A stretch of DNA of 64,000 nucleotides. It comes from an uncultured Bacilli bacterium. GTDB lineage: Bacteria; Bacillota_I; Bacilli_A; ML615J-28; CAG-313. The stretch covers positions 4,130 to 68,129 of the forward strand of contig CAKPBI010000003.1 of the NCBI GenBank assembly GCA_934140285.1. The letters run 5' to 3'. Below, piece after piece: positions 44,927 to 63,395 of the stretch. The notes under the pieces are model-generated. The model was not told the origin of the DNA and made no database searches. It saw nothing but the letters and a program-made list of their open reading frames with translations. Both the position numbers and the translations under genes were made by a program. Each line of letters opens with the position of its first letter. Within the stretch, counting starts at the first letter, position 1.

Positions 44927-44955
44927 TTGAAATTTGTCGAATATTATGGTATATT
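44927..44955 (+). promoter_or_regulatory. Sigma-A promoter (TTGAAA-17-TGgTATATT)
   Basis: -35 TTGAAA at 44927-44932, 17-nt spacer, extended -10 TGgTATATT ending at 44955; the track start at 44934 lies inside it. Confidence 0.65.
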
Positions 44956-44984
44956 ATATTTATTATGTTAGGAGGAAAATCACA

Positions 44985-46106: not shown

Positions 46107-46144
46107 TTTGGGCAGAAAAATGCAAAAAGCCAATTTTAATAGAA

Positions 46145-46175
46145 AAGTGTTCATCAATATTGAGCACTTTTTTTA
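46145..46175 (+). terminator. Rho-independent terminator
   Basis: AAGTGTTCA-tcaatat-TGAGCACTT hairpin (one G-U pair) followed by TTTTT. Confidence 0.75.
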
Positions 46176-46225
46176 TTTTTCTTCAAAAACACAAAAAAAT
46201 GCTCATTGATAAAAATTGAAAGCCA

Positions 46226-46254
46226 TTGACAAAATTTTCCATATAATGTATAAT
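46226..46254 (+). promoter_or_regulatory. Perfect-consensus sigma-A promoter (TTGACA-17-TATAAT)
   Basis: TTGACA at 46226-46231, exactly 17 nt, TATAAT at 46249-46254. Confidence 0.85.
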
Positions 46255-46281
46255 ATAATCAAAAGAAAGGAGAATTCAGCT

Positions 46282-46683
46282 ATGAAGAAATTATTTAAAG
46301 CTTTTTTAATTTTAATTGTTGTAGCATTATGTGGGAGCATCGTTTTTGTAGAAGCAAAGGGAATAACAATCATAAGAGATGATAATCCTGATGGTGTATC
46401 TGTATTATCAATTGATAATGAAAATTATTATATTGAAATTGATGAAGAAACAAATGTTGGTTATGTAATGCAAAAATTAGACAATGAAACAATTGTGCTT
46501 GGTACTTGTGAGGTTTCTGTTATTGTGGGAGATAAAGATCCTGAAGTGCTATGTGTTTCCGCTGAAAATTCAATGGGAAGTTTAGTTATAGTTACAAATA
46601 ACAGTGTTTCAACAATATCATTAAGTGAAGGCGATATAAGTAGTATATTTACTATCGATACAAAAGTTATAATAAATCGATAA
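46282..46683 (+). CDS. Small secreted protein (133 aa), unknown function
   Basis: ATG at 46282 behind AAAGGAG; signal peptide MKKLFKAFLILIVVALCGSIVFVEA|KG; acidic beta-rich mature part. Confidence 0.6.
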   Translation: MKKLFKAFLILIVVALCGSIVFVEAKGITIIRDDNPDGVSVLSIDNENYYIEIDEETNVGYVMQKLDNETIVLGTCEVSVIVGDKDPEVLCVSAENSMGSLVIVTNNSVSTISLSEGDISSIFTIDTKVIINR

Positions 46684-46792
46684 AATATATTAGTATAGTC
46701 CTTATTATTAGAGTGTTAAAGTAATTATAATTGAAAAAAGTATGTAAATTAAATTCCTAAGTCTGCTTTGGGGAAACGCTCTTAGAAATAAA

Positions 46793-46824
46793 GCTCTCTT
46801 TGGATAAAAGGGGGCTTTTTGTTT
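46793..46824 (+). terminator. Probable rho-independent terminator
   Basis: GCTCTCTT..AAGGGGGC hairpin (8 bp including 3 G-U pairs, 7-nt loop) followed by TTTTTGTTT. Confidence 0.55.
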
Positions 46825-46899
46825 AAAAATAAATTATTATATGTAGTTTGCATATAATAGTAATGATGAAACGTAAAAGACAATATGGGGAGGAACTAT

Positions 46900-46974
46900 A
46901 TGTTAATTTATTTAGTATTAAAACGTATCATCAAAGAGCTAGTTGGCCATAGTATACGGCCAAAAGTATACTAA
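46900..46974 (+). CDS. Candidate micro-ORF (24 aa, hydrophobic-cationic)
   Basis: MLIYLVLKRIIKELVGHSIRPKVY; strong GGGGAGGA SD about 6 nt upstream; unverified. Confidence 0.25.
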   Translation: MLIYLVLKRIIKELVGHSIRPKVY

Positions 46975-46999
46975 TATCATTAAATAGGAGATGCTAGAT

Positions 47000-47089
47000 A
47001 TGATTAAGATTTATTCAATGAATATGGTGATTATTTTTGAAAATATATTACTAAATAATAATATTAATATGATTGAAAGGGGATGCTAA
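47000..47089 (+). CDS. Candidate micro-ORF (29 aa)
   Basis: MIKIYSMNMVIIFENILLNNNINMIERGC; AGGAG 9 nt upstream; the stop abuts the start of the next gene; unverified. Confidence 0.2.
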   Translation: MIKIYSMNMVIIFENILLNNNINMIERGC

Positions 47090-47091
47090 AA

Positions 47092-47793
47092 ATGAAAAAA
47101 ATATTAATGGTATGTTTTATGTTAGTTATTGTATTTGTGATGGTTGGATGTGATAATAAAAATAATTTATTAACAGTTAGTTTTAAAATAAATGAAGATA
47201 TTTTATTAATAGAAAAAGAAAAAGGTAGTATTATTTCATTTGATGATGTGCCAATTGACAATGTAGATTATATAGAAAATTTGTATTATGATAGCCTATA
47301 TACTAAAAAATATGATAACGAATTAGTTGAACAAAATATTAAGTTATATGTTAAATTAAAGGAAAAAAGTAATATGATAAATAATGGCAAAAAGATTAAA
47401 TATAAGATAAATTATAATGGTATGGGGTTTTTTGGATACAAAATAGTAGATAATAAATTTCAAATATATTCTTGTGGAATAATTAATTCATATGAAGAAT
47501 TGAATAATTTGTGTAAAGAATATAACAATAATTTTATAAATGAATATGAATCAATTTATAATAATGAGTTCTTTAAAGAACAATCATTAATTATATATTC
47601 CTTTGAAACAGGATATGGTAAAGAAACTGTAATAGAAGACTTGATTTTAAACGAAGAAGAATTGATAATTGTTGAAAAAACAATTTTAAAAGATGGCTTT
47701 TATACAACAGAAGCATTTCGTTGGATGATATTAATAGAAGTAAATAAGATAGAAATTGAAAATGTCAAAGAAATAAAAATAAATTATGCATAA
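47092..47793 (+). CDS. Lipoprotein: degenerate Listeria-Bacteroides repeat + PrcB_C-like domain
   Basis: Lipobox ..FVMVGC|DNK; N-terminal half LTVSF..YYDSLYTKKY..IKLYVKLK; C-terminal half SYEELNNL..NEFFKEQSLIIYSFETGYG..TTEAFRWMILIEVNK resembles the PrcB C-terminal domain pattern. Confidence 0.55.
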   Translation: MKKILMVCFMLVIVFVMVGCDNKNNLLTVSFKINEDILLIEKEKGSIISFDDVPIDNVDYIENLYYDSLYTKKYDNELVEQNIKLYVKLKEKSNMINNGKKIKYKINYNGMGFFGYKIVDNKFQIYSCGIINSYEELNNLCKEYNNNFINEYESIYNNEFFKEQSLIIYSFETGYGKETVIEDLILNEEELIIVEKTILKDGFYTTEAFRWMILIEVNKIEIENVKEIKINYA

Positions 47794-47825
47794 AAATTTT
47801 GATAAAAAAGGTGGTGTAAACTGAG

Positions 47826-50800
47826 ATGAAAAAAATATTTTTGCTGCCTATGACTTTAATATTTGTACTAGTTAGTTCTCTTTTTGGATTAAATACTTTT
47901 ACAATTTATGCACATATAGATAATGATTTAGAACTAGCTCATACAAATGAAGAAACAATACTTAATGATACATATGAACAAGTATATAATTCTTTCATAG
48001 TTAGAAATGAAATATATAATAACAAACAATATAATATTTACGACGAAAATTTTGCTGGTGTATTTGTTGATAGCCAAGGTGTATTAAATATTGCGTATGT
48101 CAATAATAATACACTTACTTATACAAGTAGTATTAATAATAATTCGGTAATTAATTTTGTAGAGTTTACTTTTTCTTATAATTATTTACAGCAAGTATTA
48201 AATTGCATTGAAGATGTTATGATAGAATATAATGTAATTATGGTTCAGATTAGTGATGAGGATAATCAAGTTCTTCTTTTTATGAAAGATAATAGTAAAA
48301 TTCCAAATATTATTCAATATTTAGAAAGTAAAGAACTATATGAACAAAGTGCGATTAGTTTTATTTGTGATCCTTTAGTTAATTTTTCTAAAACATTCGA
48401 AACCTCCTATGGAGGAGAATCAATATTCTATATGGAACCTAACCCAGATAGACCAGGATATCTTAATGTTTTTCGAGGAACAATTGGCGTACAGGCAATA
48501 AATAATGTAACTGGAGAATTAGGAATTTTGACAAATGAACATGTTGCTCCGATGGGGAGAAATATGTATTATGGTGAACACTTTGATCATACTTTATCAT
48601 CTCTGTTTACCAAACAAGTTTTCTTAGGGACACCGTCAATTACTCATAGTGGTGACACTATTGATGCGTCATTTGTACCATTTGAAAATCAGTCAAATTG
48701 GGAAATTACTCCATATGGAAAATATAACAGCACGATATTCAGTAACATTTTTCTTGGTAATGATAGTCAAATAATTAATGGATGTTCAATAACAAAAATT
48801 GGTCAAACAACAGGAATAACAACAGGAACTATAAATAATAGAAATACGTCTATTAATGTTGAGGGTACTCTTTTTTCAAATGTAATGATATATACAAATT
48901 CTTCTCAAGCAGGTGATAGTGGTGGTCCTGTATATTATAATAACGGAACAGATTTATTTTTAATAGGACTTAATTTTGCAGGAGGTACAATTTTAAACAA
49001 AACAGTTGGTGTAGCGTGTCGTATTTCTAACGTTATAAGTGAATTAAATGTTACTCCAATCACAAATGATAGTTTTAGCACCACTATTCTTCCAGATGGA
49101 ACAGTACAATTGGACGCTATAAACTTTAATTTTAATGGTGCTTTCGTTGTACCTTCATCTTTAAATGGGAGAATTGTGTCAAAAATTGGACCTAATGTAT
49201 TTAAAAATAGAAATAAAATAACAGAAATAATTTTGCCTAACACAATTAATTCAATAGGTGATTATGCATTTGAAAATTGTTCATCTTTACGATCAGTTAC
49301 TTTGTCGACAAGTTTAATAACAATTGGATTAGCAGCTTTTAAAGGATGTGCAAGTTTAGAAAGTATTAGTATACCTAATAGCGTAACACACATAGATACA
49401 AGTGCCTTTGAGGGGTGTTCATATTTGCAGTCAGTAACATTATCAACTAATTTGATTGCTATAGGTAGTTCGGCATTCAAAGGATGTGCAAGTTTAGAAA
49501 GTATTAGTATACCTAATAGCGTAACACACATAGATACAAGTGCCTTTGAAGGGTGTTCATATTTGCAGTCAGTAACATTATCAAATAACTTAATTGCTAT
49601 TGGTAGTTCAGCCTTTAAAGGGTGTGCTAGCTTAGCTAGGATTACGATTCCAAATACTGTAACAAATATAGATACAAGTGCCTTTGAAGGGTGTTCATAT
49701 TTGCAGTCAGTAACATTATCAACTAATTTGATTGCTATAGGCAGTTCGGCATTTAAAGGATGTGGAAGTTTAGAAAGAATTGTCATACCATTAAGTGTAC
49801 AGTATATTGATGATGAAGCATTTAAGAATTGTTCATCACTTTCTGTAGTTACTGTAAATAGAAGAATAACAAACATTACTAACCTAGGAGTAAGCGTGTA
49901 TGATGGTTGTAATGCTAGTTTAAAAATTATCGTACCAGTAAATAGAATTGCTGAATATAAAAATAAAGAGTATTGGTCAAGTTATCGAAATAAAATAATG
50001 CCTTCTGAAGATTATACAGAGCTTGAAATTGACTGTGAAGGAAATGTTAGTGAATCTTTAAGCTTAAGCAAGGCAACTAATGAATTATATAAATTAAATG
50101 TTAATTGTTCAAAATCTTATAAGATTAATGCAAATTCATCCAAGACAATTAATATAATAATCTATGATGCAAACATGAATGTGATAAGTAGTGGTAGTAA
50201 CACAGTAACTCAATTTTTAGGTTGTGGAACATACTATATATCTTTTGAATTTGATGATACTAATGCTTCAGGTACATTCGAAATTGGAATTTCATTAACA
50301 TGGACTAGTAGCAATATTCTATTAAACAAAGGTACTAATAATATTAAAAATAGTATGCATTTAAATAATGAAAATGTATATCATTGTAGTTATAAATATC
50401 TTAATAATCAAGGTGAAGGTTTTTATAGATTCTCACTAAATGTTGGAAGTAATATAATTTTACCTGAAGGAACTATAAAAATATATTCAAATATAAATAA
50501 AACAGAATTACTTAATCGATATGGATCAACAGGAATAAATGAACAGGCAATAACTTACAATGGTGAAAATGAAATATATGTATTTTTACCTGAAAATGGA
50601 TATTATTACATAGATGTTGTTCTACCTAAATCAACTTATTCATTAATTACCTTAACAATTGAGCAAGTAGAGAAAAATGATATAAATTATCAAAATAGAC
50701 TTGCTACAATTGGTTTCGATGAATTATTTGATAATAAAACTGTGACTAATTATTTTGAAGAAGTAACAATAAGTCATCGTTCAAAAATTGAACTTGATAT

Positions 50801-51656
50801 TGTGACAAGTGGAACAATCAATAGAAATATACCTATTTATATTTTTGAAAAGCATCGTGATCCAGGTTATGAACCAGGGGATAATCATTATTATTTAGTG
50901 TTGGAATACACTAATAATATTACTAGTATAAATAGTGGCCCAGTATTTACTGTAATTTTAAATCCTGGAACTTATTATATAGGATATTCTGATAACTTTG
51001 ATAAAGTTCAAATACAATTTGCGTTAAGAAGAAAGGTAAATACAGATTTGAATATTGATGGTACACTTGTAACTGATCATGCAAGAAATCAAGGGTTCCC
51101 TTTAGGAAGTGAAGTAACATTCAATAATGGATCTTTACGTGGAAATACAATAACAGAAGGATTTACAAGAAATCTTTATTTAATGGTAGAAGATAGATTA
51201 CGTGATCCAATGTCAAGACTTGATTATGATTGGTATTCAAGTAATGAAAATGTTGCTAAAGTAACTAAATATGGAACAGTTCTTGCACTAAATGTTAGTG
51301 AAAATACAACTGTGACTATATATGCGATAAATAAAGATGATCCATCTATAGTCTATAAAAAAGATTTTATTATTTTAAAAGAAACAAAAACAGAACAAAT
51401 AGTAATAGAATGTAATATGTCTTATTCATATTCTGAAGAAAATGGAATGTACACATTGGAACTAGATTTTACGAATAGTCCATATCCATATATAGGTTAT
51501 TATGTATGGGATATTGAATGTTTTAATGGAATCAATGTGGATATGGAGCATCATGGTTTAGTATCTTCAACAGGTCCAGGTGCAGCGTTACTTACAGCAA
51601 ATTATACTTTAAATATGAGAATATTCCTTAAGATACATTTAACAATTACTGAATAA
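47826..51656 (+). CDS. Large secreted trypsin-like serine protease with BspA-type leucine-rich repeats and a C-terminal Big_2-like domain
   Basis: 1276 aa; signal peptide; putative triad His239 (LTNEHV, 48540), Asp280 (IDASFV, 48663), Ser365 in GDSGGP (48912-48929); about 10 LRR_5-type 23-aa repeats; YDWYSSNENVAKVTKYGTVLAL Big_2-like; no LPXTG or other anchor seen. Confidence 0.75.
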   Translation: MKKIFLLPMTLIFVLVSSLFGLNTFTIYAHIDNDLELAHTNEETILNDTYEQVYNSFIVRNEIYNNKQYNIYDENFAGVFVDSQGVLNIAYVNNNTLTYTSSINNNSVINFVEFTFSYNYLQQVLNCIEDVMIEYNVIMVQISDEDNQVLLFMKDNSKIPNIIQYLESKELYEQSAISFICDPLVNFSKTFETSYGGESIFYMEPNPDRPGYLNVFRGTIGVQAINNVTGELGILTNEHVAPMGRNMYYGEHFDHTLSSLFTKQVFLGTPSITHSGDTIDASFVPFENQSNWEITPYGKYNSTIFSNIFLGNDSQIINGCSITKIGQTTGITTGTINNRNTSINVEGTLFSNVMIYTNSSQAGDSGGPVYYNNGTDLFLIGLNFAGGTILNKTVGVACRISNVISELNVTPITNDSFSTTILPDGTVQLDAINFNFNGAFVVPSSLNGRIVSKIGPNVFKNRNKITEIILPNTINSIGDYAFENCSSLRSVTLSTSLITIGLAAFKGCASLESISIPNSVTHIDTSAFEGCSYLQSVTLSTNLIAIGSSAFKGCASLESISIPNSVTHIDTSAFEGCSYLQSVTLSNNLIAIGSSAFKGCASLARITIPNTVTNIDTSAFEGCSYLQSVTLSTNLIAIGSSAFKGCGSLERIVIPLSVQYIDDEAFKNCSSLSVVTVNRRITNITNLGVSVYDGCNASLKIIVPVNRIAEYKNKEYWSSYRNKIMPSEDYTELEIDCEGNVSESLSLSKATNELYKLNVNCSKSYKINANSSKTINIIIYDANMNVISSGSNTVTQFLGCGTYYISFEFDDTNASGTFEIGISLTWTSSNILLNKGTNNIKNSMHLNNENVYHCSYKYLNNQGEGFYRFSLNVGSNIILPEGTIKIYSNINKTELLNRYGSTGINEQAITYNGENEIYVFLPENGYYYIDVVLPKSTYSLITLTIEQVEKNDINYQNRLATIGFDELFDNKTVTNYFEEVTISHRSKIELDIVTSGTINRNIPIYIFEKHRDPGYEPGDNHYYLVLEYTNNITSINSGPVFTVILNPGTYYIGYSDNFDKVQIQFALRRKVNTDLNIDGTLVTDHARNQGFPLGSEVTFNNGSLRGNTITEGFTRNLYLMVEDRLRDPMSRLDYDWYSSNENVAKVTKYGTVLALNVSENTTVTIYAINKDDPSIVYKKDFIILKETKTEQIVIECNMSYSYSEENGMYTLELDFTNSPYPYIGYYVWDIECFNGINVDMEHHGLVSSTGPGAALLTANYTLNMRIFLKIHLTITE
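49203..49892 (+). repeat. 138-bp (46-aa, two-LRR) tandem repeat array, 5 units, central units near-identical
   Basis: AAAGG[AG]TGTG phase markers at 49341, 49479, 49617 and 49755 (period exactly 138). Units 49341-49478 and 49479-49616 differ at only about 10 positions. The second half of unit 2 recurs almost exactly at 49689-49752. Confidence 0.9.
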
Positions 51657-51671
51657 AATTTTATTGTTATA

Positions 51672-51712
51672 AAAGAGTTAATTCTAATATTTTAAAAGGA
51701 TTAACTCTTTTT
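51672..51712 (+). terminator. Rho-independent terminator after the protease gene
   Basis: AAGAGTTAATTC..GGATTAACTCTT stem (one G-U pair) followed by TTT. Confidence 0.75.
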
Positions 51713-51755
51713 ACATTTTTAAAAATTCTAAGCAAGATGAAATTATTCGTTTATC

Positions 51756-51784
51756 TTGTAAATTAACCAAAAAAATGATATAAT
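51756..51784 (+). promoter_or_regulatory. Sigma-A promoter (TTGTAA-17-TGaTATAAT)
   Basis: -35 TTGTAA at 51756-51761, 17-nt spacer, extended -10 ending at 51784. Confidence 0.75.
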
Positions 51785-51805
51785 TATAGTAGTGGGGGAC
51801 ATTCA

Positions 51806-52312
51806 ATGAAAATATTATTTAAAATATCGATTGTATTAAGTTTATTTAGTGCATTATTATTTACAAGTGGTTTTTCTACTAGTAATGATAGTGTCCAATT
51901 TATAAAAACTAATTGGGTTGAAAATTCAGAGGATGTAAAAATAGTTAATTCACATAAAGAATTACTGGAATATTACAATGTTAATCTAAAAAAATTTAGT
52001 TTAGGGCCACGTGAGAAAATAGCAAGTGATAGTACAATTGGTTTTGCCAATGCTATAGAAAAATATGATGAAGAGTACTTTAAAAATAGTTCAATAATTA
52101 TTGCAATTTTAGAAGAAAATAGTGGTAGTTATAGACATAAATATGATGGTTATAGTGTAAATAAAATAGGTACACTAACTGTGAATATCAAGACCACTTG
52201 TGATAGCGATTATGCAACTTGCGATATGGCTGGTTGGCATATGATTATAGAAACAAATAAACTTGATAATATTAAAGAAACTAAACTTTGTAAAACAGGA
52301 CTCCATCAATAG
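51806..52312 (+). CDS. Secreted PrcB_C-like protein
   Basis: 168 aa; signal peptide; ..SHKELLEYY..EEYFKNSSIIIAILEENSGSY..TCDMAGWHMIIETNK, parallel to the C-terminal half of the ORF at 47092-47793. Confidence 0.5.
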   Translation: MKILFKISIVLSLFSALLFTSGFSTSNDSVQFIKTNWVENSEDVKIVNSHKELLEYYNVNLKKFSLGPREKIASDSTIGFANAIEKYDEEYFKNSSIIIAILEENSGSYRHKYDGYSVNKIGTLTVNIKTTCDSDYATCDMAGWHMIIETNKLDNIKETKLCKTGLHQ

Positions 52313-52350
52313 TGGAGTTCTTTATTACATTATTATGGGGATGAAAAGCA

Positions 52351-52806
52351 ATGAAGTTAGATGAACTAGCAAAAAGAATAGCTAATCACTTAGCAGTAGA
52401 AGAACTTGAAATTAAGTTTGATAAAATTATTGATGATAGTAGATTATATCCAAAAGAAGGACTTATTGTTATTAATGAAAAGTACAAAGACAATTATATT
52501 GAGTGTGCTAAATCTTTGACACATGAATATAGGCATGTATTCCAAATATATTATGCTAATTTAATGGATGATGAATTAGCAAAAATATGGAAAGAGGACC
52601 TTGGGACAGCAAAAAATTCAAATAACATAAATATTAATAATGCAACTGAATTTACTGAATATAGCTTACAAATGATTGAAATTGATGCTGAAGCATTTAC
52701 TGTCTATTATTTAAAAGAATATGAAAATATTTATGCAGATTTTAAATCCAGTAGATACAAAAAGCTTATTGATAATTATATTATTAGGTATAAACAAATA
52801 ATGTGA
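52351..52806 (+). CDS. Small ImmA/IrrE-like zinc metallopeptidase-motif protein
   Basis: 151 aa; GLIVINEKY..LTHEYRH (HExxH at 52522-52536) and downstream EIDAEAF (compare E.EAN.FA of ImmA/IrrE); GGGGATGA SD. Confidence 0.55.
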   Translation: MKLDELAKRIANHLAVEELEIKFDKIIDDSRLYPKEGLIVINEKYKDNYIECAKSLTHEYRHVFQIYYANLMDDELAKIWKEDLGTAKNSNNININNATEFTEYSLQMIEIDAEAFTVYYLKEYENIYADFKSSRYKKLIDNYIIRYKQIM

Positions 52807-52872
52807 AGTTATTATTTGAAAAAAGAATTATTGTGATAAAATAATATAAAATGAAATAGGAGGCTGTTTATT

Positions 52873-53751
52873 ATGAGCAGAAATTGTAAAATAATAAATT
52901 ACTTTATAATATTGCAGTTGGTAAAATTTGATAGAAGTAAAGCAAGAAAAATATTTCTCAAATTTGCTGATTATCTAGAACATCCATTTGATGAAATAGC
53001 ATTAATTTTATCAAGAGATATACCAAATATATTTGAATTAATTAATGATAATATAAAAATTAATGCGGAAAGTGTTTTAGACATAGAAAAAAATGGAAAT
53101 ATTATTTATTATGAAGATTTTGATGCCCCAACTAGTATTTTTAGTACTACTGAATCACCTATAGTTGTTTTTTATCAAGGAAATAAACAACTTCTATATG
53201 AAAAAAGTATTAGTGTTGTGGGAACGAGAAGACCTACAGAAAAAGGTGTTTATAATGCAGAAAGAATTGCGAAGTTTTTAATGAACAATCAAATAACTGT
53301 CGTATCAGGATTGGCTGAAGGCATAGATTATATAACTCAATATACATGTGCAGATTATAATTATAAAAAATTAATAGCTGTTATTGGAACTCCTATATCA
53401 AAATACTATCCTATTAAAAATAAAAAATTGCAAGAATACATAAAACTTGAAGGTTTGCTTGTAAGCGAATATGCAAATTTTGAAAACACAATGAAGTGGA
53501 ACTTTTTGAGAAGAAATTACTTAATGAGTTCAATATCAAATGCAACAATTGTTATAGAGGCTGGCGATACTAGTGGTACTGTTAGTCAAGCAAGAAGTAC
53601 ATTGAAAAACGGAAAACCTTTGTTTGTACCAAATAATGTCTTTGAGAATCCCGAAAACAGTTGGCCTATTAAATTTAGAAATGTATTTAATAATGTATAT
53701 AAATTTTCATCATATGAAGAGTTAAAGATACTAATTACGAGAAATCTTTAG
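52873..53751 (+). CDS. DprA/Smf-fold protein (ShosA-like)
   Basis: 292 aa; VVGTRRPTEKG, VVSGLAEGID, AVIGTPISKYYP, LLVSEY, RRNYLMSSIS, VIEAGDTSGT follow the DprA Rossmann-domain motifs; GGAGG SD. Confidence 0.8.
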   Translation: MSRNCKIINYFIILQLVKFDRSKARKIFLKFADYLEHPFDEIALILSRDIPNIFELINDNIKINAESVLDIEKNGNIIYYEDFDAPTSIFSTTESPIVVFYQGNKQLLYEKSISVVGTRRPTEKGVYNAERIAKFLMNNQITVVSGLAEGIDYITQYTCADYNYKKLIAVIGTPISKYYPIKNKKLQEYIKLEGLLVSEYANFENTMKWNFLRRNYLMSSISNATIVIEAGDTSGTVSQARSTLKNGKPLFVPNNVFENPENSWPIKFRNVFNNVYKFSSYEELKILITRNL

Positions 53752-53763
53752 TGAGGGGATAAT

Positions 53764-54828
53764 ATGAAATTTATTATAGATAAATTAAGTTTTACTAATG
53801 AAGAGTTGGCTATCTTAAAAAAATCAAAGTTGGATTATACTATATTTGATGGGGATAATGTATCTGTTAAATTTGATGGGGATAATGTATCTGTTAATTC
53901 TCTTTTGACAAACATAGTATATGTAACAAAACGCAATGATTCTATTACACTAAAAAAAGAAAACATGGATTTTATACCTGTTATTATTAAAATAAGTGGA
54001 GAAGATACATGGAATGATGAAGAGGAAATGATTGATGCAAAGTGTAAAACAATTAATGAATTATTAGAGTTTAAATTTACCACGCTTTTGGGAGAAAAAC
54101 TTGCTTATTGTAATTTTGAAAATTATCAAATAAATAATTCTTCATATTTTCATTATAATTATCCAGCTTTACAAATAAATGGCGATGATAAACCTAAACA
54201 AGTTGAAGTATATGCTTTTGGAAGATATTTTCCTAAGGGGAGAGGTAAAGATAATATAAATGTTTATTCATCAAAAATTTTATCTGCAAAATATGCTAAT
54301 GAAGTAACCAAAAAATTTTATAAAAATATTCTGAGAACCGCAATAGAATTACTGAATATAAAATTTGATTATTGTTGGTATGTTCCATGTAAAGAAAATC
54401 AAGGCAATCGTTTCGAAATGATTACAGATAACAACGGAATAATTTTAATTGAGAATTATAAATCAAACAAAGAATTTGGTTTCACTGAGCGTTGTGATAA
54501 TATGAAAAATAAATATTCGATAGATAATACTTTTGAAGTAAAAGATAAAACTATACTTGTTGTCGATGATATCATCACTACTAATGCCACACTTGTAACA
54601 ATATCAAAGTTATTATATGATAAGGGTGCATTTAAGGTAATCTGGTTTTCTTTTGCAAAAACTATTTCAAAACATATTGATGAATATAAATATAAGTGTG
54701 ATAAGTGTAAAAATGAATATAAATTAAGATTTGATTATGAAGGGAACCCGATCTTAAAGTGCTCTAAGTGCAATAAGCACTACATATATAAAGCTAATAA
54801 TTTGGAGCTAATTTATAAAAGTAAGTAA
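53764..54828 (+). CDS. Phosphoribosyltransferase-domain protein with C-terminal zinc ribbon (ShosT-like / ComF-like)
   Basis: 354 aa; PRPP-binding loop ILVVDDIITTNATL (about 54553-54594); C-terminal CDKC-x17-CSKC; N-terminal about 170 aa unassigned and containing a 9-aa tandem duplication. Confidence 0.75.
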   Translation: MKFIIDKLSFTNEELAILKKSKLDYTIFDGDNVSVKFDGDNVSVNSLLTNIVYVTKRNDSITLKKENMDFIPVIIKISGEDTWNDEEEMIDAKCKTINELLEFKFTTLLGEKLAYCNFENYQINNSSYFHYNYPALQINGDDKPKQVEVYAFGRYFPKGRGKDNINVYSSKILSAKYANEVTKKFYKNILRTAIELLNIKFDYCWYVPCKENQGNRFEMITDNNGIILIENYKSNKEFGFTERCDNMKNKYSIDNTFEVKDKTILVVDDIITTNATLVTISKLLYDKGAFKVIWFSFAKTISKHIDEYKYKCDKCKNEYKLRFDYEGNPILKCSKCNKHYIYKANNLELIYKSK

Positions 54829-54982
54829 TTTCTCAATTATCAAAAATGAATAATGGTGCTTTAATATAAATATATTTTATATTTGAATATTCTATATAAA
54901 ATAATATAGATATTATTTGATTTGCATATATTATTTTTTAAAAATTAAAAGACAAATCAATCCACTTTTACGAATAAATTGT

Positions 54983-55011
54983 TTGACTTATCGAACAAAA
55001 TATTATATAAT
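54983..55011 (+). promoter_or_regulatory. Sigma-A promoter (TTGACT-17-TATAAT)
   Basis: -35 TTGACT at 54983-54988, 17-nt spacer, -10 TATAAT at 55006-55011. Confidence 0.75.
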
Positions 55012-55029
55012 ATTCTAGAGGTGAAATAA

Positions 55030-55239
55030 ATGTCGTTAAATTATAATAAACTTTGGAAACTTCTCATTGATAAAAGAATGAATAAAACTGATTTAAGAAA
55101 AAAAACGGGATTAAGTCAATCAACTATTGCTAAATTAGTAAATGGAAAAAATGTAAATATTCAAGTACTTGAGCGAATATGTTATGTTCTAGAATGTGAC
55201 ATATGTGATATTGTTGAAATAAATAAAGAGGAAAACTAA
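55030..55239 (+). CDS. XRE-family HTH protein (possible R-M controller)
   Basis: 69 aa; ..MNKTDLRKKTGLSQSTIAKLVNGKNV..VLERICYVLECDICDIVE; its stop is 1 nt before the methyltransferase ATG. Confidence 0.7.
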   Translation: MSLNYNKLWKLLIDKRMNKTDLRKKTGLSQSTIAKLVNGKNVNIQVLERICYVLECDICDIVEINKEEN

Positions 55240-55240
55240 T

Positions 55241-56497
55241 ATGACTGATTATAATACCATTCACAAGAGAATTTACGATAAAAAATGGAATTTCAAAGAT
55301 GGAAGCATGAAGGATTTAGTTCATGGTTTGCATCCATATCCTGCTATGATGATGCCCTTAATCGCTAGAACAATGTTTGAAAAATATGGTAAAGGTAAAG
55401 AAACAATATTTATGGATCCGTATGTGGGTTCTGGTACAACAATAGTGGAAGCACAAAGGTATGGTGTGTCTCAGGCGATAGGAATAGATCTTAATCCATT
55501 AGCAATATTAATATCAAAAGTAAAAACTCAAAATATTAATTTAATATTATTGAAAAGTAAAATTGATAGTTATGATGATTTTATAAAAAATGTAAGATAT
55601 TGTACTGCACCTGAATTTTCAATAAGAGATTCATGGTTTTCAAAACAAGTTATAGATGATTTAGCTAAAATTAAGGAGTTTGTAAGTACAATAGAAGACG
55701 AAGAATTAAGAGATTTCTTTAATATGTCATTTTCAGAAGTTATTAGAGCATCTTCTGAAACCAGAAATGGGGAATTCAAATTATATAGAATGAGCAAAAA
55801 ATCATTAGCAAAATTTAACCCACAACCAATTAAAATGTTTTCAGATGTAATTTTAAGAAATTATGAAATTTTAAAAAAAGCTGATTACGACAGAAATACA
55901 AATGTAATATTACTTAATGAAAACACTATCAATTTAATTAATCATAAAAATTTTTCTAATAAAGTTGATTTAATAATTACTTCTCCACCATATGGTGATA
56001 GTCATACCACGGTTGCTTATGGCCAATTTTCGAGATTAGCTAATGAATGGCTGGGTGTAAAAAATGCATGCTCTTTGGATAAACAATTATTAGGTGGAAC
56101 AAGGGTTAAAGAAAAAAAATTTAACATTCAGGAACTTGATGAAGCGATTCAAATGATCAAAGAAAAGGATGTAGTGTTTAATAGAGATCGCTACTGGGAA
56201 GTAATTTCGTTTTATGATGATTATGAAAAGTCTCTTAAAGCTGTGGCTTGTACAGTAAAAGTAGGCGGCTATGTAATTTATGTTGTCGGTAATAGAAGAG
56301 TTAGAAATATAGAATTGCCAATGGATATTATAACGTATAAAATGTTTGAAAAAATGGGGTTTGAACACATTATTACTCATGTGCGTGATATATTAAATAA
56401 GAGAATGCCATCAAAAGCATCGCCTTCAAATGAAAAAGGAGAGCAAATTCCTACAATGACTAACGAATACATAGTTGTAATGAAAAGAATAAAATAG
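55241..56497 (+). CDS. DNA amino-methyltransferase (motif order I-TRD-IV; SPPY suggests N4-C or N6-A)
   Basis: 418 aa; FMDPYVGSGTTIVEA (motif I), about 170-aa variable region, DLIITSPPYGD (motif IV). Confidence 0.8.
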   Translation: MTDYNTIHKRIYDKKWNFKDGSMKDLVHGLHPYPAMMMPLIARTMFEKYGKGKETIFMDPYVGSGTTIVEAQRYGVSQAIGIDLNPLAILISKVKTQNINLILLKSKIDSYDDFIKNVRYCTAPEFSIRDSWFSKQVIDDLAKIKEFVSTIEDEELRDFFNMSFSEVIRASSETRNGEFKLYRMSKKSLAKFNPQPIKMFSDVILRNYEILKKADYDRNTNVILLNENTINLINHKNFSNKVDLIITSPPYGDSHTTVAYGQFSRLANEWLGVKNACSLDKQLLGGTRVKEKKFNIQELDEAIQMIKEKDVVFNRDRYWEVISFYDDYEKSLKAVACTVKVGGYVIYVVGNRRVRNIELPMDIITYKMFEKMGFEHIITHVRDILNKRMPSKASPSNEKGEQIPTMTNEYIVVMKRIK

Positions 56498-56500
56498 ACT

Positions 56501-56526
56501 AGAGCATTGTGATATGCTCTTTTTTA
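56501..56526 (+). terminator. Rho-independent terminator after the methyltransferase gene
   Basis: AGAGCAT-tgtgat-ATGCTCT hairpin followed by TTTTTT. Confidence 0.8.
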
Positions 56527-56551
56527 TTTTTATTAGAATTTAGTTTAATAA

Positions 56552-56580
56552 TTGTAATTTTCTGCTAAATATGTTATAAT
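56552..56580 (+). promoter_or_regulatory. Sigma-A promoter of the nuclease gene (TTGTAA-17-TGtTATAAT)
   Basis: -35 TTGTAA at 56552-56557, 17-nt spacer, extended -10 ending at 56580. Confidence 0.75.
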
Positions 56581-56601
56581 TTAAAATATTTGGAGGTTAT
56601 T

Positions 56602-57360
56602 ATGATGATTGAACAACAATTAGTTAATTTCTTTTTTTCTATCAAGAATAAAGGTTGGATAGAAACAAAAAGGCATGGAGACCAGTGCTTAGGTAATGCC
56701 TTTGAAGATTTAATCGGTAAAATTGAAGATAATAAATCAGAGGCAGATTACCATGGAATAGAATTAAAATCTCATAGAGAAATTACAAATTCTTTACTAA
56801 CATTATTTTCAAAATCTCCATCGTTTCCTAGAGGAGTAAATACTTATTTAAGAGAAACTTATGGTGTTGATAATGATATTAATCAGGACAAAAAAGTTTT
56901 GAATACTACAATTTCGGGTAAGCAATTTAACTCTCACAGAGGTGGACATAGTTTTAAAGTTACTGTTGATCGTGTAAATAAAAAAATATGGCTGATAGTA
57001 AAAGATAGTAAAACAAATTTAATTTTAGAAGATTGTAATACTGGTAAAAAAATAAATTGGGATTTTGCTGTTTTAGAAAAAGCTCTTAAAAACAAATTAA
57101 ATAAAATTGCCATTATGTATGGTGAAGAAAAAGATGAAAATTCAAAACATTTTGTAAAATATAATAAGATGATAATGTTTGAAGGACTAACCTTAGAAAA
57201 AATGTTGAACGCAATAGAAACAGGGGACTTATTTATTGATATAAGACTTGGCGTTTATGCTTCAGGAAGTAAGTTAGGGAAAACTCATGATCATGGAACT
57301 GCATTTAGAATAAATTTAGACAAGCTCCTTTCATATGGTATTATAAAAACTTATGAATAG
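56602..57360 (+). CDS. Type II restriction endonuclease candidate (MutH/Sau3AI/MvaI-BcnI-like PD-(D/E)XK)
   Basis: 252 aa from the ATG at 56602 (GGAGG 5 nt upstream); GNAFEDLIG..EADYHGIELKS matches the D-x6-E-x-K arrangement of MutH-like nucleases; adjacent to the methyltransferase. Confidence 0.6.
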   Translation: MMIEQQLVNFFFSIKNKGWIETKRHGDQCLGNAFEDLIGKIEDNKSEADYHGIELKSHREITNSLLTLFSKSPSFPRGVNTYLRETYGVDNDINQDKKVLNTTISGKQFNSHRGGHSFKVTVDRVNKKIWLIVKDSKTNLILEDCNTGKKINWDFAVLEKALKNKLNKIAIMYGEEKDENSKHFVKYNKMIMFEGLTLEKMLNAIETGDLFIDIRLGVYASGSKLGKTHDHGTAFRINLDKLLSYGIIKTYE

Positions 57361-57433
57361 AATTTGATATGATAAAATTGTTTTATTTTAATATTAATTT
57401 TTAACTAATAGAAACTGAGAATTGGAGAACAAT

Positions 57434-59329
57434 ATGCAACAGTATAAAAAGTCACCATTTTTAAGATATATAGAAACAAATTTTGATAAAGTAATAACAA
57501 AAAAGTTAGAGGAATTTGTAGATGCAAAAAAGGATTTATTTTTAGACAAAATTGATAAAATCTCTCACATTTCGGAAGTGACTATACCAGAGTCAATAGA
57601 TTACAAAACAGTATGGATTGAAAACGATCCTCATGAAGATATATTAAAATTTGATGTTGCTTTTGCCACAACCGTTAATGTAACTGGATATGGAAGATAT
57701 GGAATGTTGACTGAATCTATATTCAAATGGTTTGTTGCTTTTTGCGAGGGAGATTTATCTTTAGGATTAAAGAAGATAGATGTTGTTATAGATGAATATT
57801 CGTGTAAATCTCGATTTAAAAATGCTCTTAATGGAGATTTGGTACCAATTATTAAGAGAGAACAATATGATGCTATTGCAGAATCAATAATTCTAAAATA
57901 TTATGATGAAATTCCTAGAAAAGTAAAAATAATTAAACTTGCAAATAGAATGGGCCTTAAGGTATATAACAGAAGAATAACTAAAGATGCGTCAATATTT
58001 GGACAAATATACTTTACTGATTCATATCAAGATTTATATGATGAAGAAAGTGACTCTTATAAAAAACACAAAGTAAAAGCTAATTCAATATATTACGATG
58101 AAAAAGCTATATTTTTATATGCAGTTGGTTCAAAAAAACTTACAATAGCACATGAATGTGTTCATTATGCGATACATAAAAAAGCGTTTCTTTTTGCTAA
58201 ATTATTTGATAAATCGTTGGAGATCATTCAATGTGAAACTACAGGTGGTATAAAAGCAAATAAAAAAACAAATGCGATAGAATGGATGGAACGACAAGCA
58301 AATGCTATTGCACCGTATATTATTATGCCAACCAAAACCTTCACTAAAAATGTTAAAGAAATTGTAACAAAATATGAATGTTATAGTGATGAAGATGTTG
58401 TGAGTCACATTGAAAAAATTATTGAAGAGTTAGCTGAATATTATGGTGTAACAATATATGCAGCAAGAAATAGATTAATTGATATTGGCTATGATGAAGC
58501 AAGAGGAGCATTTAATTGGGTAGATAATCATTATGTTCCGCCATACCTTTTTAGAAAAGGAACACTTAAAAAAAGTGAATCATTTTCTATAGATTATAAA
58601 GATATAGCGATGAAACTAATATCTAACAAAGATACACGTGAATTAATTTGCTTAAATGATTTAGTGTTTGTCGAAAATCATGTATGCATAAATGACAAGA
58701 AGTATATAACTAAAGATGATGCTGGAAATCTAATTCTAACATATTATGCTAGAATGAATATGGATGAATGTTGCATAAAGTTTGTATACAAGGAAAAAGG
58801 AAAAAATGATGAAAATGGTTATGGAGCATTTTGTTATTTATGTAGAGATGCAAATCAAGGCTTTAATTTTGAAATTGATATATCTTTGGATAAAAATGGA
58901 AGATTAGCAGATAAACTTGATACAATAAAAAGAAGTGAACAGTATTTTAAAGATATTCAAGAAATGAGAAAAATAGGCTCAATGCCTTTTACTGAAGCAT
59001 TAAAATTTCTAAAAGAATATCTTGATGTAAGTAATGAAGAGTTAGAAATTGAATCAGGATTAGATGAAAGAACTATTAGAAGATACTTAAATGGAGAAAA
59101 CAAAGTTCCTGATAAGAAAACAGTCATTGCTTTGTGTAGAGGATTAAAACTACCTATTCAAATTTGTGATATGTTAATGAAATTAGCAGGTCACACTTTA
59201 AACACTAATACCAAAGAAGATGATGCTTATTTTGCAATACTGACTGGAATGATGATGTGGACACCTAGACAAGTTAATCAGTATCTAGTTGAAACTGGAT
59301 TTGAACCTTTAACAAAAGAAAAAAAATAA
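57434..59329 (+). CDS. Large ImmA/IrrE-family metallopeptidase with a C-terminal XRE-type HTH
   Basis: 631 aa from the ATG at 57434; IAHECVHYAIH (HExxH at 58151-58165) and ERQANAIAPYIIMP; C-terminal HTH (..ESGLDERTIRRYLNGENKVPDKKTVIALCRGL..); two unassigned regions of about 140 and 200 aa. Confidence 0.7.
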   Translation: MQQYKKSPFLRYIETNFDKVITKKLEEFVDAKKDLFLDKIDKISHISEVTIPESIDYKTVWIENDPHEDILKFDVAFATTVNVTGYGRYGMLTESIFKWFVAFCEGDLSLGLKKIDVVIDEYSCKSRFKNALNGDLVPIIKREQYDAIAESIILKYYDEIPRKVKIIKLANRMGLKVYNRRITKDASIFGQIYFTDSYQDLYDEESDSYKKHKVKANSIYYDEKAIFLYAVGSKKLTIAHECVHYAIHKKAFLFAKLFDKSLEIIQCETTGGIKANKKTNAIEWMERQANAIAPYIIMPTKTFTKNVKEIVTKYECYSDEDVVSHIEKIIEELAEYYGVTIYAARNRLIDIGYDEARGAFNWVDNHYVPPYLFRKGTLKKSESFSIDYKDIAMKLISNKDTRELICLNDLVFVENHVCINDKKYITKDDAGNLILTYYARMNMDECCIKFVYKEKGKNDENGYGAFCYLCRDANQGFNFEIDISLDKNGRLADKLDTIKRSEQYFKDIQEMRKIGSMPFTEALKFLKEYLDVSNEELEIESGLDERTIRRYLNGENKVPDKKTVIALCRGLKLPIQICDMLMKLAGHTLNTNTKEDDAYFAILTGMMMWTPRQVNQYLVETGFEPLTKEKK

Positions 59330-59388
59330 AAAAATTCGGACAGGTGTTGTCCTAAAAAAATTCATAATTAAATATTAAATGTACAGTA

Positions 59389-59415
59389 AAGAGGATGAAA
59401 AGTCCTCTTTTTTTT
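59389..59415 (+). terminator. Rho-independent terminator
   Basis: AAGAGGA-tgaaaag-TCCTCTT hairpin followed by TTTTTT. Confidence 0.85.
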
Positions 59416-59583
59416 GCGTTTAATCTAAAAAAGCAACTAAAAATCATAAATAATAGCGGACAAGGGTTGCCTTTCAAAATAATGAGATACTTGATATACT
59501 ATTTGCGTAAATTGATTTACAAAACTTATTCATATAATTGTTGAACTGGCCATTCAACAAAACATATGAGGAAAGGAATTGTT

Positions 59584-59712
59584 ATGTATTATAAAGAAAC
59601 AGATGCAACAGGCATCGATGGACAAAGAGTAAATTCATGGGATTTATTTAGAGAAGCTGAATTAGCAAAAGAGAGAAACAACCAATATGTTGAAGGTGAA
59701 GAAGATGCCTAG
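59584..59712 (+). CDS. Small acidic phage-module ORF (42 aa)
   Basis: MYYKETDATGIDGQRVNSWDLFREAELAKERNNQYVEGEEDA; GAGGAAAGG SD; overlaps the next start by 8 nt (ATGCCTAG). Confidence 0.4.
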   Translation: MYYKETDATGIDGQRVNSWDLFREAELAKERNNQYVEGEEDA

Positions 59713-60835
59713 TGAACATGCAATATTATCTGCAAGTGGAAGTCATAGATGGCTAGCATGTACGCCCAGTGCAAGATTAGAACAAGAATTTAGTGATACT
59801 GATTCAACAGCTAGCCTTGAAGGTACAGCAGCACATTCACTAGCAGAACACAAATTAAAGAAAAAACTAAAAATGCAAAGTACTAGACCTAACACAATTT
59901 ATGATAATGATGAAATGGAGATGTATACAGATGATTACTCAGACTACGTCGTTGAACAATATACAAAAGCAAAAAGATATGATGAAAATGCAAAAGTATT
60001 AATTGAACAGCGATTAGACTTCAGTTGCTACGTTCCAGAAGGGTTTGGTACAGGAGATGCAGTAATCGTAAGTAAAGGTAAACTACATATAATTGATCTA
60101 AAATATGGACTAGGTGTATTAGTAAATGCAGAAAAGAATCCGCAAATGATGTTATATGCACTAGGTGCATTAAGAAAATATGAAAAAGAGTATGAAATAA
60201 AAAAAGTAAAATTAACAATTTTTCAACCACGACGTGAAAATGTAACAACATGGGAAACCACAACAGCAGCTCTAAAAAAATGGGCAAATAAAATATTAAG
60301 ACCAAAAGCTGAAATGGCATATAGAGGAACAGGCAAATATGAACCAGGAGCACACTGCCAGTTTTGTAAAGCAGCAATTAAATGTAGAGCAAGAGCGGAA
60401 GAAAAGTTAAAACTTGCAAAAGAAGAATTTAAAAAGCCACCATTAATAACAGATAATGAAATTGAAAGTGTGTTAGCAAAAATATCAGATATCAAAAAAT
60501 GGTGTGATGATATTATGGAATATGCATTAGAAAAAGCACTAAATGGAAAAAAGTGGGAAGGCTTTAAAATAGTAGCTGGACGTGGAACACGAAAGTATTT
60601 AAATGAAGAAGCTGTAGTAGAGGCTTTAAATAAAGCAGGATATTATGATATTTATAAAAAGTCATTACTTCCAATAACAGAAATGGAAAAACTAATGACT
60701 AAAAAAACATTTAGTGAAGTGCTAGGAAAACTAGTAGGTAAAACTGAAGGAAAACCAACTTTAGTTAATCTTGATGACAAAAGACCAGAACTAAATACTA
60801 TACAAGCAAAAAATGAATTTAAGGAGGAAAAATAA
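59705..60835 (+). CDS. DUF2800-family PD-(D/E)XK (Cas4-like) nuclease, phage type
   Basis: MPSEHAILSASGSHRWLACTPS.. N-terminus, DLKYG nuclease motif, C-terminal Cys cluster HCQFCKAAIKC. Confidence 0.8.
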   Translation: MPSEHAILSASGSHRWLACTPSARLEQEFSDTDSTASLEGTAAHSLAEHKLKKKLKMQSTRPNTIYDNDEMEMYTDDYSDYVVEQYTKAKRYDENAKVLIEQRLDFSCYVPEGFGTGDAVIVSKGKLHIIDLKYGLGVLVNAEKNPQMMLYALGALRKYEKEYEIKKVKLTIFQPRRENVTTWETTTAALKKWANKILRPKAEMAYRGTGKYEPGAHCQFCKAAIKCRARAEEKLKLAKEEFKKPPLITDNEIESVLAKISDIKKWCDDIMEYALEKALNGKKWEGFKIVAGRGTRKYLNEEAVVEALNKAGYYDIYKKSLLPITEMEKLMTKKTFSEVLGKLVGKTEGKPTLVNLDDKRPELNTIQAKNEFKEEK

Positions 60836-60836
60836 T

Positions 60837-61367: not shown

Positions 61368-61437
61368 AACAAATGTTGTTTATAAGGGTAGGAGAAATCT
61401 TACCCTTATAGATTAACACTAGAAAGGAAACAGTATA

Positions 61438-63390: not shown

Positions 63391-63395
63391 TAGAA

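Follow-up and report, generated by a model that had tools for sequence, protein, structure and literature searches.

The window analysed here is a stretch of 64,000 nucleotides of contig CAKPBI010000003.1, from an uncultured Bacilli bacterium, and at 52873-54828 it carries two adjacent genes for a DprA-like protein and a phosphoribosyltransferase (PRTase). We conclude that this pair is probably a two-gene, type IV toxin-antitoxin-like abortive-infection (Abi) cassette of the ShosTA kind, held as swappable cargo in a prophage defence hotspot. Judged by homology, from which its mechanism is also proposed, the pair appears to be a divergent, uncharacterised variant of a known two-gene defence/toxin-antitoxin system. 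ShosTA is known from E. coli APEC O1 and a P2-like phage hotspot, reportedly through Kimelman 2012, Millman 2022 and Rousset 2022, and its structures are said to be those deposited as 8ZVA-8ZVD, 9VZO and 9W2P. The attribution to a ShosTA-type module had already been made in an earlier reading of the letters alone (the sequence-only reading), and it is borne out: the DprA-like protein fits a ShosA model, the best fold matches of the PRTase are ShosT structures, the pair is found together in all contexts where upstream DNA is available, and it lies in a hotspot beside restriction-modification (RM) genes. The larger assembly in which that reading had placed it, a four-gene operon with a protease as third component, breaks down on comparison with related loci.

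The sequence-only reading had listed four co-directional open reading frames (ORFs) with a series of motifs, all of which are present in the translations. The frames were confirmed on the + strand at 51806-52312 (ORF1, 168 aa), 52351-52806 (ORF2, 151 aa), 52873-53751 (ORF3, 292 aa) and 53764-54828 (ORF4, 354 aa). HEYRH and EIDAEAF can be read in ORF2, VVGTRRPTEKG, VVSGLAEGID, SEY, RRNYLMS and VIEAGDTSGT in ORF3 and, in ORF4, a phosphoribosyl pyrophosphate (PRPP) loop, ILVVDDIITTNATL, together with C312xxC315-x17-C333xxC336.

From its PADLOC, Pfam and PDB matches, ORF3 (52873..53751, + strand) is a ShosA-like DprA-family gene and a putative antitoxin gene. The PADLOC ShosA and ShosT models were calibrated with the pair of phage P2_4C9 (canonical ShosA and ShosT), the ShosA of which scores 764 bits on PDLC02997 and 284 bits on PDLC03961. 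On the latter model ORF3 scores 209.7 bits (1.4e-62), next to 236 bits for gp32 of the Geobacillus phage phiOH2 and 212 bits for a protein of Hujiaoplasma. Matches were also obtained to Pfam DNA_processg_A (1.3e-49) and PADLOC PsyrA (5.7e-24), and the PDB sequence search returned S. pneumoniae DprA (3uqz, 2.3e-27) as well as E. coli ShosA (8zva/9vzo, ~1.5e-21). ORF3 remains below the cut-off of the NCBIfam dprA equivalog TIGR00732 (156.8 vs 191.15 bits), and its gene is missing from sister alleles at the same locus. It thus has the profile of a ShosA: fit to the ShosA model, failure at the dprA cut-off and strain variability. A housekeeping DprA was considered and rejected because the protein is below cut-off, strain-variable and always paired with the PRTase; no second dprA was found within the 64-kb window.

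The PRTase gene (53764..54828, + strand) encodes a putative ShosT-like toxin, as suggested by Pfam and PADLOC profiles, an AlphaFold2 (AF2) model searched with Foldseek and a family alignment. Its product consists of a family-specific N-terminal domain (residues ~1-140), a PRTase core (~140-305, with D268/D269 in the PRPP loop) and a C-terminal CxxC-x17-CxxC zinc ribbon (312-336). Pfam Pribosyltran is matched at 9.8e-7. The AF2 model is confident (pLDDT 89.3, pTM 0.89), and its top three Foldseek hits in the PDB are all ShosT (8zvd/8zvc/8zvb, 7.5e-7 to 1.2e-5), followed in fourth place by ComF 7p0h (4.7e-5) and by generic PRTases at 1e-3 or worse. In hhalign, D268/D269 align with D331/D332 of ShosT, and the D331A/D332A substitution abolishes ShosT toxicity in E. 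coli (PMC11961720).

Several observations weigh against the reading of the pair as a two-gene ShosTA-like cassette. ORF4 reaches only 32.6 bits (1.7e-8) on the PADLOC ShosT model PDLC03962, over residues 245-311 and profile positions 150-226 of 237, and has no match to the ShosT model PDLC03012, while canonical ShosT of P2_4C9 scores 179.8 and 973 bits on the two, respectively. It fits PADLOC PsyrT as well as ShosT (3.8e-9 vs 1.7e-8). The hhalign comparison of the ORF4 family with P2-type ShosT spans only 49 columns, round the PRPP loop, and the N-terminal domain has no sequence match to the pyrophosphatase-like N-terminal domain of ShosT in the hhalign/profile comparison. Global TM-scores between the ORF4 model and ShosT are low (0.30-0.35; the whole-chain Foldseek alignment has 474 columns). 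Finally, the ORF2 gene, which encodes a zincin, precedes a DprA/PRTase pair not in the window alone but also in a second, divergent lineage (L035, L117), so that the zincin may have a functional tie to the pair. Besides ShosT and PsyrT, ORF4 matches comF TIGR00201 (2.2e-11, 44.1 bits vs a cut-off of 233.55), and its matches to ShosT, PsyrT, Pribosyltran and comF are all confined to the PRPP-loop region, residues ~240-311.

The relatives of ORF4 surfaced only in an exhaustive phmmer search, which gave ~17 full-length family clusters at 25-43% identity along with many further proteins, 400-460 aa long, with alignments limited to residues ~140-340. A word-indexed search with ORF4 found a single relative at 95% identity (P0053), and the same search with a profile of the 17-member family alignment (A1) found three proteins. 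D268, D269, C312, C315 and C333 are invariant in A1, C336 is invariant in a closer subset, and further conserved residues include D6, W83, K93 and E111 of the N-terminal domain as well as G153-R154. The ribbon of the Hujiaoplasma family member P0067 scores as Pfam Zn_ribbon_Top1. The genome-contig scan with ORF4 alone returned nothing. As no stretch of A1 was conserved enough for search patterns, the sub-alignment A3 was used instead; with it, the genome-contig scan gave one locus in a metagenome-assembled genome (MAG), L035, and the metagenome-contig scan gave mostly generic PRTases, with an adjacent DprA-like gene only at L036 and, marginally, at L043. There was no match in tblastn searches of INPHARED phages with ORF4 or ORF2, and an IMG/VR scan with ORF4 found no relative. 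Together, these data place the PRTase in a separate clade, of which the N-terminal domain may differ from that of ShosT and the zinc ribbon at the C-terminus is conserved. The sequence-only reading had considered both of these parts non-canonical; this is right for the zinc ribbon, which canonical ShosT lacks and the clade conserves, and wrong for the presence of an N-terminal domain, since canonical ShosT has one of ~164 aa. Our search of the literature on DprA with PRTase and zinc ribbon, and on DUF3920, found no account of the present variant. The PRTase gene also contains a 27-nt tandem duplication in perfect frame at 53841-53894, through which FDGDNVSV occurs twice in the protein; P0053 shares it and other family members do not, and the model is at its least confident there (pLDDT ~64).

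DprA-like and PRTase genes form a conserved two-gene module. In all seven contexts for which upstream DNA is available, the gene that directly precedes that of the PRTase is ShosA-like; these contexts are the window, L035 (a Bacilli MAG), L117/L118, L119, L120, L025 (a prophage of Hujiaoplasma nucleasis) and L036. The order, A then T, is also that of phage P2_4C9. Three of these contexts (L025, L036 and L120) have no zincin near the pair. In phage phiOH2, the DprA-like gp32 and the PRTase gp31 have the same order and closely precede the terminase genes, again with no zincin in the annotated stretch, and gp31 aligns with the ORF4 family profile at 5.9e-23 over 202 columns covering PRTase core and zinc ribbon (hhalign). 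The position immediately upstream of terminase, seen in both the Hujiaoplasma prophage and phiOH2 (L122), mirrors that of E. coli ShosTA in the P2 hotspot by cos.

A mechanism can be proposed by homology. ShosA, which combines a SAM domain with a Rossmann DprA-like domain, has both single-stranded DNA (ssDNA) and RecA as binding partners, and neutralises ShosT, to which it does not bind (PMC11961720, PMC12961424). By analogy, the 354-aa PRTase would be the toxin, binding PRPP through the conserved loop with D268/D269 and derailing nucleotide metabolism or DNA replication, and the 292-aa DprA-like protein would be an antitoxin that acts indirectly, via ssDNA binding and RecA-dependent repair. 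Infection would then remove the protection, either by host shut-off combined with a labile antitoxin or through phage ssDNA or replication proteins, and the infected cell would die. The C-terminal zinc ribbon of the PRTase may add nucleic-acid binding.

The limits of the cassette were defined by comparison with sister alleles. In blastn, identity to L006, L007, L012, L014 and L017 stops at 52730/52731, inside the zincin gene and 75 nt before its stop codon. It returns at 57424, 10 bases ahead of the ATG of a 631-aa gene, with 97.8% identity in L012 and L014; in other alleles it returns at 59491 or 59694. Because identity stops and resumes at these points, the pair and the MvaI/BcnI-type RM system that follows it are exchangeable cargo (52731..57423). 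The slot holds other genes in the sister alleles: a Type III RM system (L006-L010, zincin P0008 83% identical), two Dam-type methylases with an AlwI-family endonuclease (L012-L017, zincin P0012 79% identical), a Tsp45I RM system (L001-L003, zincin P0022), a Bsp6I RM system (L004), or a set of HNH, methyltransferase and DUF3427-helicase genes (L005). The same backbone (~630-aa gene, DUF2800, Enc34, PolA) comes after the cargo in most human-gut alleles. A search for direct or inverted repeats that would mark the cassette ends (52250-57500) yielded AT-rich chance matches only, and the window contains no tRNA genes. For these reasons the exchange does not look like site-specific insertion; rather, the cargo looks as if it is swapped by homologous recombination in the flanks, with the zincin gene as left border and a Peptidase_M78/helix-turn-helix (M78-HTH) gene as right border. 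The 25 C-terminal residues of the zincin vary blockwise among alleles, as expected if crossovers fall inside the gene.

A second breakpoint lies further left. With L012 and L014, the only left-side alignment is a conserved island of 455 bp (52277..52731, 95.4%) that contains a hairpin and most of the zincin gene and lies between two variable regions; upstream of 52277, ORF1 and a leucine-rich-repeat (LRR) protein gene are replaced in these alleles by ParB_N and other genes. ORF1 (51806..52312, + strand), a 168-aa protein gene with a hydrophobic N-terminus, lies in this left variable region, outside the ShosTA-like module. It has no family in Pfam, PADLOC, NCBIfam or PHROGs. At 96% identity it stands before the zincin in L006-L010, which are the Type III RM alleles, and in L017, an AlwI allele, and in L012-L015 and L001 it is replaced by ParB_N or nucleotidyltransferase (NTP-transferase) genes. 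Linkage across the four genes is therefore broken at both 52277 and 52731, which speaks against the four-gene operon of the sequence-only reading.

The signals between the genes were also assessed. That reading had relied on a TTGTAA-17-TATAAT promoter ahead of ORF1 and on the absence of any hairpin until after 54828. The promoter-like site is indeed present at 51756-51784 (10/12 consensus matches, with TG ahead of the -10 hexamer), and it carries little weight, as such sites occur in the window at chance level (78 vs 72.1 +/- 6.9 in shuffles of this 25-29% GC DNA). A further one, TTGAAA-18-AATAAT at 52816-52845 (+ strand, 10/12 matches), lies upstream of the ShosA-like gene in cargo-specific DNA and is likewise a consensus match of the chance-density class. 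As to hairpins, the statement was mistaken: a 10-bp hairpin followed by a U-rich tract spans the ORF1 stop codon at 52297-52321 (+ strand), between ORF1 and ORF2, with a dG of -16.3 kcal/mol (z = -4.61, none of 200 shuffles as stable). It could serve, between ORF1 and the zincin gene, as a terminator or attenuator. In the terminator scan, this inverted repeat is reported on the - strand (52318-52300). There is no terminator-like hairpin 3' of ORF4 (z = +0.96), the next on the + strand being at 56501-56520, past the methylase, and the folding test found no hairpin between the zincin gene and the ShosA-like gene. Nor does co-directionality point to an operon, given that nearly all of the window's long ORFs lie on the + strand. 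The argument for an operon from co-directional genes and an upstream promoter-like site was rejected on these two grounds.

The remaining question is what the zincin contributes. ORF2 (52351..52806, + strand, 151 aa) is, by alignment and AF2 fold, a minimal HExxH zincin gene that encodes only an IrrE/ImmA/CapP-like peptidase domain, and its neighbourhoods identify it as the left-border gene of the hotspot. The ImmA/IrrE-type signature noted in the sequence-only reading is there as far as HEYRH and EIDAEAF go, and fails at the profile level: no match to Peptidase_M78 (PF06114) was found at E <= 0.1 and none to PADLOC capP, the only Pfam match being DUF3920 at 22.3 bits, below its cut-off of 27.3. 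A PDB sequence search with ORF2 gave noise only. In the zincin alignment, H58, Y60, R61 and H62 do not vary, and conservation is at least 90% at E59, E110 and D112. The AF2 model (pLDDT 90.4) shows a three-stranded sheet with five to six helices; its best PDB folds, PprI 8sln and IrrE 3dte, are weak (E ~0.012, probability 1.0, TM 0.44), with minigluzincins level, and a viral library gave small SprT-like and IrrE-like phage zincins. From these features, the 151-aa protein is probably an active minimal zincin.

Relatives of this zincin are not regularly linked to DprA/PRTase pairs. A total of 52 were detectable, and they precede 12 different right-hand gene sets, mostly RM systems, with an SpbK-like TIR set and others besides, always immediately upstream of the cargo and in the same direction; the pair is present in only two of these 12 sets. 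Zincins of 79-83% protein identity, often accompanied by the 168-aa gene, stand before quite different cargo, and four more unrelated sets follow ~45% identical zincins on IMG/VR viral contigs (L029-L034). On the latter contigs the zincin comes right after two large ORFs (431-440 and 528-529 aa), the N-termini of which are serine-recombinase-like by eye only, and varied small cargo comes after it; such an arrangement is what a moron or defence slot at the end of a prophage would be expected to show. In the divergent L035/L117 lineage, a 46% identical zincin gene is followed by an overlapping 65-aa XRE HTH gene, a ShosA-like gene (63%) and a PRTase gene (41%). The L117 cassette is flanked by 844-bp direct repeats (94% identical; 4018-4859 and 7714-8554), each with zincin and XRE HTH; in the second copy the two are fused as a single 223-aa ORF, ahead of 252-aa and 820-aa genes and a SpbK-like TIR gene (PADLOC spbK 1.2e-70). 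The survey of neighbourhoods thus found no conserved linkage between the 151-aa protein and DprA/PRTase pairs, an outcome that the sequence-only reading had itself named as refuting its proposal: the zincin is a conserved left-border gene and not a dedicated ShosTA component. With or without an HTH gene, it is a recurrent companion of diverse cargo that could be either a recombination anchor only or a generic ImmA/CapP-like switch.

How far such ideas can be carried was considered at two levels. At the broader one, the mini-zincin, with or without HTH, would be a portable, co-directional, bare-peptidase ImmA/CapP-like module that both anchors cassette exchange and controls the following defence cargo in gut Bacilli prophages, and the PRTase-zinc-ribbon/ShosA-like pairs would at the same time constitute an undescribed Bacillota/Mollicute-phage branch of ShosTA, in which the toxin reads a nucleic-acid signal via a topoisomerase-type zinc ribbon. 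We put this joint proposal forward tentatively and hold it to be doubtful.

At the narrower level, the zincin alone would be a generic CapP/ImmA-type regulator of cargo, which cleaves an HTH repressor after DNA damage or infection and thereby switches on any downstream cassette, as a shared and not a ShosTA-specific function. This would agree with the constant position and direction of the gene in the 12 contexts, with the conserved catalytic HExxH and downstream E/D, with the resemblance of its fold to the IrrE/PprI peptidase domain, with the overlapping HTH gene in L035 and L117 and the HTH-fused copy before the TIR set in L117, and with the lack of a hairpin between the zincin and ShosA-like genes. 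However, no HTH gene adjoins the zincin in the window or in L001, L004-L006, L012 and L029-L034, the zincin has neither a GAF nor another sensor domain, and the M78 and capP profiles do not recognise it. Furthermore, CapH/CapP are divergent from their operon (bioRxiv 10.1101/2022.04.27.489752), whereas the zincin is co-directional with its cargo; the recombination junction falls inside the zincin gene, as for a passive anchor; and most downstream cargos are RM systems, of which at least that of the window has its own C-protein. Such a regulatory role is therefore, in our view, unlikely.

A different possibility is that the pair is not a defence system at all, but a DprA/ComFC-type DNA-processing module of the element, serving RecA loading on element ssDNA or recombination, or only an addiction module by which the element is stabilised. 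ORF3 is slightly closer to S. pneumoniae DprA than to E. coli ShosA in the PDB sequence search, ORF4 has the weak ComF matches in profile and fold described above, the phiOH2 and Hujiaoplasma pairs lie among phage replication and packaging genes, and phage-borne DprA-like genes are common, with 39 phage records matching the DprA-like search. Yet both proteins are far under the dprA and comF cut-offs, and the zinc ribbon is C-terminal in ORF4 and N-terminal in ComFC. The pair is also dispensable for the element, as sister alleles with 95-98% identical flanks do without it, and the slot is otherwise filled by RM and Abi genes. Moreover, defence is the function of the one DprA and PRTase pair from a phage hotspot that has been tested (PMC9122126, PMC11961720). 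We consider this possibility very improbable. The least tenable proposal, and one we regard as extremely unlikely, is the sequence-only reading's dedicated ShosTA variant of four genes (for the secreted protein, protease, DprA-like protein and PRTase) or three components, with the protease as trigger or regulator: adjacent co-directional genes behind one promoter-like site, and a zincin that accompanies the pair in both the window type and the divergent L035/L117 lineage, are set against 10 of 12 zincin contexts with no DprA/PRTase, three of five evaluable pair lineages with no zincin, a breakpoint inside the protease gene, a hairpin between ORF1 and ORF2, and an ORF1 that also travels with the zincin before Type III and AlwI RM cargo.

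The two-gene ShosTA-like cassette thus remains the favoured reading, and its surroundings show on what kind of element it is carried. The second cargo is a type II RM cassette (55030..57360, + strand) composed of a C-protein HTH gene (55030-55239), a methyltransferase gene (55241-56497) and an MvaI/BcnI-family endonuclease gene (56590-57360), with matches to Pfam HTH_26 (6.6e-21) and MvaI_BcnI (4.7e-44) and to PADLOC MTase_II (4.4e-105) and REase_II (4.2e-58). A strong promoter-like site of its own, TTGACT-17-TATAAT, is found at 54983-55011, and the terminator-like hairpin at 56501-56520 lies between its methyltransferase and endonuclease genes. At the right border of the cargo, the M78-HTH gene (57422..59329, + strand; 631-635 aa, with divergent alleles) encodes an ImmA/ImmR-like fusion that matches Pfam Peptidase_M78 (6.8e-8) and PADLOC capP (6.5e-10), with HTH_3 and HTH_31 weaker and below cut-offs. 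Its identity is 96.7% in L012 and drops to ~26% in L001 and L006, whereas the adjoining DUF2800 gene keeps an identity of 97-99%; this allelic variation looks like that of an immunity region. Further downstream follow the DUF2800/PD-(D/E)XK protein gene, a gene labelled as Enc34 ssDNA-binding protein after its annotated equivalent in contig L019, which is 100% identical, and a gene for a family A DNA polymerase; together with a D5 primase gene (D5_N), these are carried by the backbone of the element.

This element runs from 44612 to 64000 or beyond, and ordinary chromosomal genes are found upstream of ~43500. At 99% identity, it abuts different chromosomal genes in different assemblies: in the window, the gene next to the left junction (~44612) is one for a tRNA U5-methyltransferase, and in other assemblies it is a MiaB-like or tRNA-synthetase gene. 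The hotspot lies ~8 kb inside the left end of this integrated phage-like element. Because the element abuts different chromosomal genes and the M78-HTH alleles resemble an immunity region, the cassette is the cargo of a temperate-phage-like element; no integrase gene was seen in the window. Two further genes of the element vary in length. The LRR gene mentioned above (47826-51656) encodes a 1276-aa secreted protein with a leucine-rich-repeat region and internal DNA repeats of ~138 bp (49265-49876); sister contigs have a shorter or broken gene call (L007, 552 aa; L021, 651 aa), so that the element seems to carry a hypervariable surface protein here. The gene for the family A DNA polymerase (61438-63390) encodes 650 aa in the window, L019, L020, L023 and L024 and is called as 957 aa in L021, L022, L012 and L001, a difference that could be due to a fusion, a frameshift or an inserted segment.

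No new principle is involved here, as ShosTA, prophage hotspots and protease/HTH switches are all known. What the analysis adds is, firstly, a PRTase branch that ranges over gut Bacilli, a Mollicute-like prophage and a thermophilic Geobacillus phage. ShosT profiles barely detect the present PRTase (32.6 bits), so profile tools may undercount the branch, and its distinct N-terminal domain and zinc ribbon make it a natural comparison for the roles of the accessory domains of ShosT. Secondly, it describes a hotspot of a human-gut prophage-like element in which two conserved genes enclose at least six alternative defence cargos, a slot that is a practical place for finding new defence systems in seldom-cultured organisms.

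ShosTA is among the closest known systems. Both are two-gene pairs of DprA-like protein and PRTase in the order A then T; the partner fits a general ShosA model, the DD motif aligns with the toxicity-essential D331/D332, and ShosT is the best fold match of the PRTase. Both also occur in a prophage hotspot beside other defence genes, DprA with PRTase (ShosTA) having been found in the P2 hotspot next to cos (PMC9122126). E. coli ShosT has 424 aa, with a pyrophosphatase-like N-terminal domain at 1-164 and the PRTase domain at 165-424 (PMC11961720, PMC12961424). The PRTase described here differs in its length of 354 aa, in sequence similarity limited to the PRPP loop, in an N-terminal domain with no detectable sequence relation to the pyrophosphatase-like one and in the conserved C-terminal CxxC-x17-CxxC zinc ribbon, which is undescribed for ShosT; the host is a low-GC member of the gut Bacilli. 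Also among the closest are two uncharacterised pairs, gp32 and gp31 of the Geobacillus/Thermus phage phiOH2 (gp31 being labelled 'predicted amidophosphoribosyltransferase') and HF295_04625 of Hujiaoplasma with the DprA-like gene upstream, which share the PRTase core with zinc ribbon, the ShosA-model partner, the gene order and the phage or prophage setting. They lie just upstream of terminase and not in a slot between zincin and M78-HTH genes and, in phiOH2, gp31 has another N-terminal domain and gp32 is longer (410 aa).

PsyrTA (RqlHI) resembles the pair through the PRTase region of ORF4 (PsyrT, 3.8e-9) and through ORF3 (PsyrA, 5.7e-24). However, the PsyrT model has 689 positions, only the last ~60 of which match ORF4, and PsyrT carries a RecQ-like helicase, a domain that ORF4 does not have. 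The combination of ComFC and DprA offers a comparable pairing of a PRTase-fold protein bearing a four-cysteine zinc module (ComF 7p0h) with a DprA-family ssDNA/RecA mediator; it differs in that the comF and dprA cut-offs are failed here, that the zinc module is C-terminal and that the genes are strain-variable cargo of a mobile element. The zincin has its counterparts in ImmA/ImmR, IrrE/DdrO and CapP/CapH, to which it is linked by HExxH, by PprI/IrrE as best folds and by the L035/L117 relatives with an XRE HTH gene upstream of defence cargo. It departs from them in its 151 aa, with neither GAF nor linker domain, no M78 or capP match and no HTH partner in the window and, as far as CapP/CapH are concerned, in the direction of the gene relative to its cargo. 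As a whole, the locus is organised like the hotspots of P2/P4 prophages and satellites (Rousset et al. 2022), with conserved flanks round a slot of alternative defence systems in near-identical elements, and is distinguished from them by its element family, by its gut Bacilli host group and by the genes that flank the slot, the mini-zincin and M78-HTH.

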